Notes under the pieces: generated by a model
What the model was told of the DNA's origin: nothing
What the model saw: the letters and a program-made list of their open reading frames with translations, nothing else
Databases searched by the model: none
Shown: one piece after another, positions 9,286 to 59,506 of the stretch
How positions within the stretch are numbered: position 1 is the stretch's first letter
How the letters are laid out: the number at the start of each line of letters is the position of its first letter
Program-made: the position numbers and the translations under genes
Assembly (NCBI GenBank): GCA_964016885.1
Contig: OZ024743.1
Span: 119,164,001 to 119,228,000, forward strand
Source of the DNA: Eledone cirrhosa
Taxonomy: Eukaryota
Direction of reading: 5' to 3'
DNA: 64,000 nucleotides

Positions 9286-10505
9286 TATTACAGGTATAAT
9301 AGCGAAATATATAAATCTTCGAGAAAACATATAAATCAGTGTGTCCAGCACACAAAAAAAAACTTCCTTGAAACTCACCCCATCGTAAATGAAGTGAACC
9401 AAGAATTGGTCAGTCGGAATTCGGTAATCAACGACGCTATTCTTCAGAAACGGCTTCATGCATAACAAAAGTTATATGAATTATTTACATATATAGAAAT
9501 AAGTTGGAAACTCAGATCCTAAGGCTCCGAAACATTGTCGGGAACTTAGAAAATAGAATACTCTATTGTATACTTTTGGAAAGATTTTGATGGTAAAATA
9601 CGAAAAAGTGAAGCTTGAACACGCGGTGTACAACAACCATCAAACACAAAGCAATGTTATCTTTCACTAAACCTGCCAAATAATTCTGTTACAATAGGCT
9701 TGTCTTACAATATGCTCGCAGTCCAGCTGTTTGTATAAAGAAAGCAGTTGATGGTATCTGTGGAAATGTTCGATATGTTCGTCTTCAGCTGGCTGGTGGC
9801 AACATCCAGTAACCATTCAGAGATCAAGCCACATCAAATAATTGAACACATATAATTATTGAATAAACATGTGGAGAGATCAACACCAACTAGAGTTTTC
9901 TTGGATACTAATGAAGATAAAACATTACATCACCTCAAGCATCTTAACTAGAGACGATAACTAGCAGGATATCATGACTAGAAACGACAACAATGAAGAT
10001 AACACAATAAGTCTGCTCAAGCAAAACGGCTATGAAAACAGAGACTGAAACAAAGGATAGATAGAGAAAAAAAGCAAACAAGATGGGGATACTCCGGAAG
10101 AATCAAAATTCCAATGATCAAATCTAACAAGGGATTCTGCCTGTTAGAATTAGTTGTCTGTGAGTCACACACAACTTCTACACAACCGTATTTAAAAGGG
10201 TTACACTTCATAATGCAATCCTTGATACGCTATGTCTATAAAAGAAAGACAAAATGGGCATCCTCTCAGTTGTGTGTGCTGTTTAATGTGAGAAATAAGT
10301 TTGTAGCTTCTCATTGAAGTGAAATGGAAATGCGGCTGGAATGCTTTTGATCATATGTCTGTCCCAACAGTCTAGATCTTTGACTAAACAACATCAACAA
10401 TGACGATGAAAAGGAAACAGGTTTATTAACACCGAAGCCATTCGTCGTCTTATCTATAGCTTATATTGAATTAGAGCTGTTAAATAGCAACCTCATCTCT
10501 TAAGA

Positions 10506-10588
10506 TGCTGTCTGATGAGGTCGTGTTGGTGGTTGCGTGATTACTGCATTACGTAATTATGAACGCCACAGAAATATGTATTACGGCA
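10506..10588 (+). ncRNA. Degenerate hammerhead motif with long stem II (PLE pLTR-like)
   Basis: TGCTGT-CTGATGA-(long imperfect stem II)-GAA-ATATGTAT-T-ACGGCA. AATAAA follows; the island ends in (TA)n at ~10770. Confidence 0.55.
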
Positions 10589-10766
10589 GATTCTGAATAA
10601 AATGAATTAAGAAAATTTACAATTCACAATTATCATCATTGTAATACTTCGTTATGGACTACCAAATCACATTTGGAGGCAAACACAGGTCGTTGGATGT
10701 CTCAATCCCTTTACTGATTGGAGTGTTGCATACACAAGCCAGTTGTCAACCACTTTTATAAAAGCC

Positions 10767-10808
<42 letters not shown>

Positions 10809-10934
10809 GTAGGAGGTGAGTTTTATTGTAGTACAATAAAGCAATGCAGATATCGGATAAGAAGCACTCTACAGTTTGTAGGACTGGAGTATACATAATA
10901 TATAAGAACAAAAGATGGTTAAAAGAGTTCCATG

Positions 10935-11005
10935 TATTTTATTATGCGCATTTCAAAAACAAATATCATCATGCAAAAATATTTGTGTTTTCATCAGATA
11001 AAACA
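10935..11005 (-). ncRNA. Mirror copy of the 11131 hammerhead
   Basis: Reverse-complement arm of the fold-back; TCATCAG at 10991-10997. Confidence 0.85.
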
Positions 11006-11130
11006 GGAGGACATGATATGAAGGTTAAAAAACACTTGTGGGTAGTTCAGTTTTAAATCAACATATCATATATGTTGATTTAAAACTGAACTACCCACAA
11101 GTGTTTTTTAACCTTCATATCATGTCCTCC

Positions 11131-11201
11131 TGTTTTATCTGATGAAAACACAAATATTATTGCATGATGATATTTGTTTTTGAAATGCGCATAATAAAAT
11201 A
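11131..11201 (+). ncRNA. Type-I hammerhead ribozyme motif
   Basis: TGTTTTAT-CTGATGA-AAACACAAATATTAT...ATGATATTTGTTTTT-GAA-ATGCGCAT-A-ATAAAATA. Perfect palindromic stem III; predicted cleavage after 11193. Confidence 0.85.
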
Positions 11202-11229
11202 CATGGAACTCTTTTAACCATCTTTTGTT

Positions 11230-11301
<72 letters not shown>

Positions 11302-11818
11302 GCTTTCTGTTTTCACCTCAGACTTTCTGCTTGTCTCTCTTTGTCTCCTTCCCTATCTCTCTCTTTTTCTCCCCCTCTCTCGCTATATATATATATATTT
11401 ATATATATATATATATTAATATATATATATATTTATATATATATATCTATATATATACATGTAGATTGTCATGAAAAGAGAGAGTGTGAAGGAAAAGAAA
11501 AAGATAGATAATGAGAGGAACAGAAAAGATAGATAATGAGGAATGAGAGAGTGAAAAAGATATTGCATGGAAGATACAGTAGGAGAGAGAAATTGGGCGA
11601 CAATGAGTTGACTTGAAATCCACTTTCAGTTTATTCGGGAGGGCTCGGTTGACAGGTTTTGTCACCGCCATAAATCAGCCAGTGTGACCAAAGAAAACAA
11701 AATAGAGAGGATGTATGGTAGAGAGGTCAGTATGTAACTACAGTGATATCCCCACCACCCCGTCAAATTTGATGTGCTAAAAATAGCAGCCAAATCGCCC
11801 GCTCTCATACCCGTTCTA

Positions 11819-58881: not shown

Positions 58882-59084
58882 TACATACACACATACATAT
58901 ATACATACATATATGCGTGTGTTTGTGTAGTGTGTGCGCAGGCGCGAATGCACGTGAAATTATTTCAGGTGTGTGCGGGGTGGGGGGAAACAGACGACGG
59001 AGAACATAAAGAAAAAAAAAAAAAAAAAAAAGGGGTGTTGAGTGGAGTAGGCATGCATTGTGAAATATAAATACTTCAATTTAC

Positions 59085-59425
59085 CTTTTAAGCAAGATCT
59101 TCCATTCTGTTGGTCATTAGTGAACTGGCTTCCTGATAGATATCTCGGAATCGTGTAAGATCCGGAATTTGTCCCGAAATTCAAATTGGCCGCCGCCGCC
59201 GCCGCCGCCGACACGGAGGCCGCGTCCCAAAATCGTGGCCCCATTTGGTTTTGACCGTATATACAAGAATCGCCGAAATCTAGAGCGGCGGCGGCGGCGG
59301 CTGCTGCGGCGGCGGCGGCTGCTGCTGCGGCGGCCCCGCACGAGGCCGCCGTAGGGGCTTGGTTTTGACAAAAGTGACCCGGCAGGGTGTCAGAAAAGTA
59401 CAACATGTTCCAAAGTTTGGTATAA
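59085..59425 (-). CDS. Exon of an unidentified host gene encoding a poly-Ala-rich segment (possibly a transcription-factor N-terminus)
   Basis: GC/CpG-rich open frame YTKLWNMLYFSDTLPGHFCQNQ..poly-Ala..LDFGDSCIYGQNQMGPRFWD..A7..NGRSCLK. Acceptor CACTTTCAG| at 59426, donor AAG|GTAAAT at 59084, possible start ATG at 59406. Alanine codons are mixed. Confidence 0.75.
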
Positions 59426-59457
59426 CTGAAAGTGCATGGACTAAATAGATCTTTCAC

Positions 59458-59506
<49 letters not shown>

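Follow-up and report, generated by a model that had tools for sequence, protein, structure and literature searches.

A lopsided hammerhead-bearing palindrome between (TA)n runs as a candidate twin-priming product of a Penelope-like element

A palindrome of about 430 bases with a hammerhead motif on each strand lies between (TA)n runs in an AT-rich, microsatellite-rich and apparently animal stretch of 64 kb, the whole of which was analysed and is referred to below as the window. Judged by its anatomy, the element is very probably the stump of a truncated Penelope-like retrotransposon (PLE). We put the probability at roughly 0.55 that its asymmetry arises from twin priming of a 5′-truncated PLE terminal repeat into (TA)n, with the products joined head to head. 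The family has two recurrent 3′ ends, and its junctions range from tail-only inversions to full palindromes.

Results

Anatomy of the palindrome

The original prediction described nearly identical arms of ~168 bp around a spacer of 3-4 nt, and the measured structure agrees with it: the arms are 169 nt each, are identical at 168 of 169 positions with the single mismatch at 10977/11159, and are separated by the 3-nt spacer CAT (Table 1). A 3′ tail of ~90 nt on the long, minus-strand arm was likewise borne out, as this arm extends ~91 nt beyond the palindrome, from 10897 down to 10807, into the 37-nt TA run. The short, plus-strand arm was said to stop at an internal TATATA merged into the flanking (TA)n, and it does fuse through its own TATATA with the 67-nt run; this hexamer occurs just once in the arm, at the short end. 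Because the hammerhead motif is on the minus strand in the long arm and on the plus strand in the short arm, which are the respective sense strands, the two copies lie head to head. (TA)n flanks the palindrome on both sides, and a target site duplication is illegible within the TA runs.

Table 1. Coordinates of the palindrome, its flanks and the repeat groups of the window
Feature	Position	Strand	Remark
8-mer AAAGCCTG	10761-10768	+	reverse complement at 11299-11306, just beyond the opposite TA run
Left (TA)n run, 37 nt	10770-10806		putative target and primer of the long-arm cDNA; other family copies enter TA at 10802-10807
One-sided 3′ tail, ~91 nt, between two family-wide 3′ ends	10807-10897	-	
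Long arm, duplicated part, 5′-truncated pLTR-like sequence	10898-11066	-	minority base at 10977
Type I hammerhead motif, long arm	10935-11005	-	descriptor and fold
Spacer CAT, head-to-head junction	11067-11069		
Short arm, inverted copy, ends at the family's internal 3′ end	11070-11238	+	last 7 nt overlap the TA run
Type I hammerhead motif, short arm	11131-11201	+	core 11139-11145, predicted cut after 11193
Right (TA)n run, 67 nt	11232-11298		putative target and primer of the short-arm cDNA
Family B	30629, 53824, 62953, 55940, 28755		
Family C	57676, 22137		
Family D	31329, 22419, 29348, 39302, 36214		
Singletons	20773 and 30115		
~190-nt repeat, near-full copies	21168, 24214, 25840, 26420, 32446, 46175, 47465, 49249		

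The family's usual sequence diverges from the CAT spacer at 11067-11069 and has a CATATG palindrome there; the spacer can be assigned to neither arm. Loose ends behind 11066 were present in all four of the mapped runs described below. The tail folds into three hairpins and a closing stem that pairs its two ends, with a fold z of -2.37 and 5 of 200 shuffles equally stable, the folded stretch including 7 nt of the TA run. Since the two ends pair, the fold would bring two start sites together; by eye, the same end pairing is seen in two of five other tails folded (22137 and 31400). Beyond the TA runs, an 8-mer recurs in inverted orientation. Flank pairs of TA runs sharing at least 8 bases number 14 of 2211 and are mostly simple repeats or ends of the same family.

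The hammerhead motifs

Both strands carry a hammerhead core of the form CUGAUGA...GAAA-UGCGCA-UA with an 8-bp stem I. In the long arm, stem I is formed by 11005-10998 and 10942-10935, CUGAUGA (10997-10991) is followed by helix II, and GAAA occupies 10954-10951; this motif contains the palindromic AUGCGCAU, and its predicted cut falls after 10943, at an AUA triplet. The long helix II comprises about 12 bp and additional weak closing pairs, with A-U as the closing pair; its stability is greater in the short arm (-9.1 kcal/mol) than in the long one (-5.4 kcal/mol). Helix III is palindromic in both hammerheads at this locus, and a helix III duplex between two hammerhead copies is predicted at -10.5 kcal/mol, so that cleavage is predicted solely for a dimer formed via this helix. 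A complete hammerhead on both strands had been proposed; the core is indeed intact on both, but helix III falls short of what a monomer needs and helix II is closed by A-U. Family variants at 10990 and 10955, both bases of this closing pair, would give a canonical G-C if carried together.

Descriptor motifs were found seven times in the 64-kb window as against 0.033 times per dinucleotide shuffle (30 shuffles), and those with a palindromic helix III six times as against zero in all 30 shuffles. Rfam at its gathering score gave no match. At E up to 10, the stretch 10400-11400 gave 71 weak matches, none of which was to a hammerhead model; most were miRNA-hairpin models on the palindrome, which we rejected as matches to shape only. 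Because both arms extend ~120 nt beyond the cut site, hammerhead cleavage was rejected as the maker of the 5′ end, and the hammerhead probably had no part in joining two cDNAs.

Left of the element, a separate hammerhead-like motif (10500-10770) has CUGAUGA at 10512, a long helix II and a fold z of -4.09. It may represent an older element sharing the same TA run as its 3′ end, and it has no relative within the window.

Membership in the Penelope-like elements

The PLE traits present are a type I hammerhead with a small palindromic helix III, a 5′-truncated copy beside a head-to-head inverted copy, and an optional 3′ tail bounded by two fixed 3′ ends (10802-10807 and ~10890). The overall shape, in which inverted pLTRs meet head to head, a tail extends on one side and hammerheads are present, is already published as a form of PLE insertion. 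PLE inserts with an inverted pLTR and an optional tail are described in PMC3846280 and PMC8557442 (Arkhipova et al., 2013; Craig et al., 2021), and the likeness extends to 5′ truncation, a shorter head-to-head inverted copy, a palindrome at the junction, a one-sided 3′ tail and, putatively, a microsatellite target. The published tails measure 30-40 nt compared with ~91 nt here, where no ORF remains, and (TA)n targeting is reported for Naiads, which are without canonical hammerheads, whereas this family has one. The hammerheads of PLEs with their small palindromic helix III, including motif pairs on opposite strands 100-700 bp apart, are treated in PMC4209133 (Cervera and de la Peña, 2014). Ours are alike in type I topology, intact core, a helix III predicted to require a dimer and an extra base before helix II, but have a long helix II, an A-U closing pair and an AUA cut triplet, unlike the conserved G10.1-C11.1 given there.

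No RT or GIY-YIG domain of Pfam was matched in the 92 window frames of at least 70 aa; their only match over the cut-off was a Transposase_1 fragment at 41277-41540 on the minus strand (E 1.5e-06). A GC-richer island (35243-36171) holds overlapping open frames of 157-253 codons with zero Pfam matches, which by eye we take to resemble the end of a non-LTR retroelement ORF. An open frame with poly-alanine runs at 58960-59496 on the minus strand also has zero Pfam matches and contains an exon-like stretch that by eye is typical of developmental transcription factors. In a metagenome scan, a 21-nt piece of the hammerhead matched no locus, and a 17-nt motif of the tail matched 25 loci with a longest match of 39 nt and no TA run above 8 nt; as these matches scarcely extended past the motif, they were rejected as chance.

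Metazoan non-LTR retrozymes, argued in bioRxiv 10.64898/2026.07.22.740005 to derive from PLE pLTRs, are likewise short non-coding repeats with a type I hammerhead, but they are defined there by head-to-tail tandem units and our copy is head to head without a tandem. A retrozyme was therefore rejected: there are no head-to-tail units, BLAST within the window matched the element only to its own inverted copy, and none among the four joints listed from the reads goes back. In place of the constant terminal inverted repeats expected of a MITE or fold-back DNA transposon, the element has a 91-nt extension at one end and a centre and 5′ extent that vary between copies.

Family copies in sequencing reads

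Words of the locus are contained in 19 runs, three of which, from one sample, have 0.69-0.90 of them; that sample may be the source of the assembly. Four of the 19 runs were mapped onto the long arm alone (10801-11075) at 80% likeness. X17 consists of raw reads from another sample and study, X4 comes from another organism, and X1, X4 and X6 were counted as contigs. Family copies amounted to 4116 contigs in X1 (1119 at ≥99%), 395 in X6 and 33 in X4, and to 5253 raw reads in X17. The family is thus high-copy, occurs also in another sample and another organism, and looks young.

Among the ends listed, loose ends entering TA at 10802-10810 came from 21 contigs of X1, 1151 and 467 reads of X17 and one contig each of X4 and X6, and those at 10890 from 54 contigs of X1, 269 reads of X17 and two contigs of X4. 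Since the TA run aligns across 10890-10904 at 80% likeness, the 10890 ends correspond to the end of the short arm. Further ends at 10910 (35 in X1, two in X6, one in X4) belong to a variant sequence that in X1 enters TA at about the same place. Both recurrent 3′ ends (10802-10807 and ~10890) are hence present in three of the four runs, X1, X17 and X4, and X6 has the first together with the variant at 10910. The 5′ ends vary among family copies and the 3′ ends are fixed; because numerous copies extend beyond 11066 (X17, 355 reads), the copy at this locus is 5′-truncated. The base of the short arm at the mismatch (10977) is the family's majority base, shared by 702 of 726 first-mate-plus reads of X17, and that of the long arm is rare; at 11042 and 11047 both arms have minority alleles in common.

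Of the four joints listed, three connect opposite strands: 10839-11065 (98 reads, one start), 10897-11073 (77 reads, two starts) and 10877-10970 (one contig). In all three, one breakpoint falls within the tail or at its border and its partner lies upstream. The joints 10839-11065 and 10897-11073 are necessarily head to head; in each, an upstream piece, inverted and not duplicated, abuts the whole tail or a portion of it, and 10897-11073 inverts cleanly at the internal site without duplication. The 5′ end zone 11065-11073 is common to these two read joints and this locus.

As a separate observation, 10944 (hammerhead U16.1) has a plus-strand A>G change that makes up 14% of the depth in X6 (20 contigs), is absent from X1 and occurs in three reads of X17. 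The change in X6 could be A-to-I editing of the hairpin RNA or an allele.

Other fold-backs of the window

The same long-arm/short-arm design had been claimed for 20773, 30115, 30629, 53824, 57676 and 62953. All six are inverted pairs with one side longer, but BLAST linked none of them to the 10807-11238 element and they fall into four groups (Table 1); moreover, the short arm of 30629 has no TA run behind it, and 30115 lacks a defined long end. Further inverted pairs are found at 31329, 36256, 38805 and 15975, and arm identity over the 11 pairs measured is 84-100%. Only 57676 among the six carries a full core on both strands, and family B, judged by eye, retains the 3′ half of the hammerhead.

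The short ends coincide in all five copies of family D and fall within about 3 nt of each other in four of five copies of family B, and these coinciding ends include three copies without an inverted partner. In family B, 55940-56080 consists of only an inverted upstream piece and the tail, which meet at CTATTA at the internal end, and is an inversion of the twin-priming type; 22419 probably has the same form with 6-9 nt of tail. Centres differ among the family B copies 30629, 53824 and 62953. The spacer of 57676 resembles the short arm in the sense orientation, where 7 of 1000 shuffles did as well, as opposed to 868 of 1000 in antisense, and that of 31329 has 24 nt identical to the upstream sequence of 22419. 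The spacer is therefore short-arm sequence in two of the two informative palindromes; 30629, 53824, 62953, 20773, 30115 and this locus, whose spacers can be assigned to neither arm, stand outside that count.

Sequence comparison makes family C a probable distant relation of the element: shuffles did as well in 3 of 1000 cases for the whole, in 6 and 17 of 1000 for the tails, and in 97 of 1000 for the upstream part, a weak result. The matching end positions of the element's own family and 57676/22137 in the alignment are a lead only. Family C (22040-22325 and 57676-58065) has an AUAUAU helix III and a tail with a GAGUGCUUCU motif in common with the element studied.

Another family with CUGAUGA-type cores is found at 23296-23440, 39703-39894 and 40023-40139, the copies 39703 and 40023 lying head to head about 130 nt apart. 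Older asymmetric fold-backs occur at 36220-36815 and 38805-39170, with arms 84% and 90% alike; the former has ends resembling those of family D, and part of a ~190-nt interspersed repeat interrupts it. This repeat, SINE-like by size, has eight near-full copies that are 80-96% alike, as well as fragments.

Discussion

Twin priming of LINE-1 5′ inversions is reportedly due to Ostertag and Kazazian in 2001. In L1 twin priming the internal site is unfixed and the two pieces scarcely overlap; here, unlike in L1, the internal site is fixed and the overlap reaches up to 169 nt. According to PMC4245944, twin priming underlies LINE-1 5′ inversions, the second target strand priming internally and the two cDNAs being joined head to head, and the copy at 55940 and the 10897-11073 joint share this form. 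A biochemical parallel is the Poseidon element PAc of Anolis, whose purified protein cleaves and extends both target strands and is predicted to act as a dimer, and whose RT can begin at either of two internal positions of the RNA, between which a tail lies (PMC11167929; Frangieh et al., 2024). PAc is alike in having these two start sites downstream of the hammerhead and an AT-rich target. Its start sites are non-homologous to the target and lie within the start of an ORF, whereas here both ends are TA-like and, by eye, no open frame follows the hammerhead. Tandem and inverted PLE products are termed undefined in PMC8557442, and the main text of PMC11167929 does not derive the inverted structure from two-strand extension. 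A search of titles and abstract openings, covering few subscription papers and no supplements, found no literature deriving PLE inverted repeats from twin priming.

Two-strand priming by a purified PLE protein (PMC11167929) combined with L1 twin priming (PMC4245944) predicts two fixed 3′ ends, inversions that join the tail to an upstream piece, and palindromes with short-arm spacers where the distal cDNA passes the internal site. All three are seen in the reads or the window. A PLE RT/GIY-YIG protein acting in trans would nick both strands of (TA)n, and each nicked strand would prime cDNA synthesis on the element's RNA, the first from the distal 3′ end (10807) and the second from the fixed internal site (~10898). 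The internally primed cDNA would lead and reach a stall zone near 11065-11073. Depending on where the distal cDNA stops, the product would be a short inversion (inside the tail), a clean inversion (at the internal site) or, when it reads on, a palindrome as at 10898-11238; reading on could involve displacement of the first cDNA, a second RNA, or completion by the short-arm cDNA folding back. Head-to-head joining of both cDNA ends would follow, and end joining at the CATATG zone would add the few extra bases.

Several observations sit uneasily with twin priming. None of the 92 frames ties the family to a PLE protein by an RT or GIY-YIG match, the anole element starts at non-homologous rather than TA-like sites, and the tail exceeds the published length. 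The sole TATATA of the arm would, as a microhomology hot spot, give the same clustering of ends, further end points may exist among 184 weaker rows of loose ends beyond those listed, and microhomology deletions in full palindromes could yield the same inversions and spacers; the joints rest on one or two read starts or one contig each. The shared minority alleles at 11042 and 11047 require one template, one source copy or arm-to-arm conversion, and the inverted 8-mer of the flanks is left unexplained.

This 8-mer favours, at this locus, the mechanism assumed in the original prediction, in which a single target-primed cDNA, the long arm, snaps back, copies itself, exits at the internal TATATA, slips to TA and joins the other target end. 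Were the tail ends paired, the polymerase could skip the tail and copy the left TA run with its flanking bases, which would account for the 8-mer; the near-perfect arms with their common minority alleles and the plausibility of ATAT-CAT-ATAT as a primer with a 3-nt loop also suit such a copy. Self-annealing of small hairpins makes inverted duplications at L1 ends according to 10.1101/2024.12.14.628481. We nevertheless regard fold-back as rather unlikely. It leaves the solo short-ended copies and the tail-only inversions unexplained, and the family sequence beyond 11066 does not provide the CAT spacer. A copy of the long arm cannot contain a short-arm spacer unless the centre was later deleted, which argues against fold-back in 57676 and 31329. 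The recurrent short end, the tail-only inversions and the short-arm spacers together thus favour twin priming. The idea of a short arm copied from the long-arm cDNA up to a chance TA microhomology is not supported as stated, since the short-arm end recurs family-wide and also in solo copies of families B and D. Short-arm ends are non-random with respect to TA as had been expected, clustering at ~10890 into TA, but they look like a fixed family terminus more than a chance site. What survives of the proposed recent insertion is a real retro-insertion into (TA)n, probably young to judge by the identity of arms and family, with a recurring long-arm/short-arm design; its self-copying cDNA finds less support.

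Self-priming on an antisense template is proposed for head-to-head palindromes in PMC3846280, for the Adineta Penelope; on an antisense or already hairpin-shaped transcript it would copy palindromes as units, and the TA-rich centre could serve as a two-way promoter. This origin is improbable here: copies within one family (30629, 53824 and 62953) have unlike centres, as do this locus and the read joints, so that each insertion seems to have generated its inversion afresh. A long inverted repeat at a TA target looks like a MITE, and the window holds a Tc1/mariner-type fragment elsewhere; yet the asymmetric ends, the many copies that continue 5′ past 11066, the variable 5′ and fixed 3′ ends and the hammerheads in the arms make a DNA-level origin very improbable, whether as a MITE, as a fold-back DNA transposon or through repair that duplicated a resident repeat in inverted orientation. 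Perfect palindromes are a known long-read artefact and most of the locus is confined to one sample, maybe the assembly's own source, but a fold-back read or assembly artefact, once named as what would overturn the structure, is hardly credible given a palindrome that ends at a family-wide terminus followed by different unique flanks, arms that differ at one base with the family majority base in the short arm, short-end junctions and head-to-head joints at 11065/11073 in raw reads from another sample and study, and ten other fold-backs in the window with arms 84-100% alike.

Returning to twin priming, we tentatively propose, at somewhat lower confidence than for this locus itself, that the inverted-pLTR-plus-tail shape of PLEs reflects programmed twin priming, in which the two nicked strands of a single (TA)n target engage two fixed start sites brought together at the base of a ~90-nt RNA tail domain, and that tail-only inversions, palindromes with a spacer and perfect palindromes form one continuum set by the reach of the trailing cDNA.

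The object itself is ordinary, a stump of a known retroelement class, and with its structure already known the mechanistic gain is modest. It matters as naturally preserved evidence of how PLEs integrate: one 64-kb window and the mapped reads already show every product class predicted by twin priming. If programmed twin priming is true, SSR-rich animal genomes contain thousands of such events. Hairpins of this kind split (TA)n runs, escape Rfam and would form long double-stranded RNA if transcribed.
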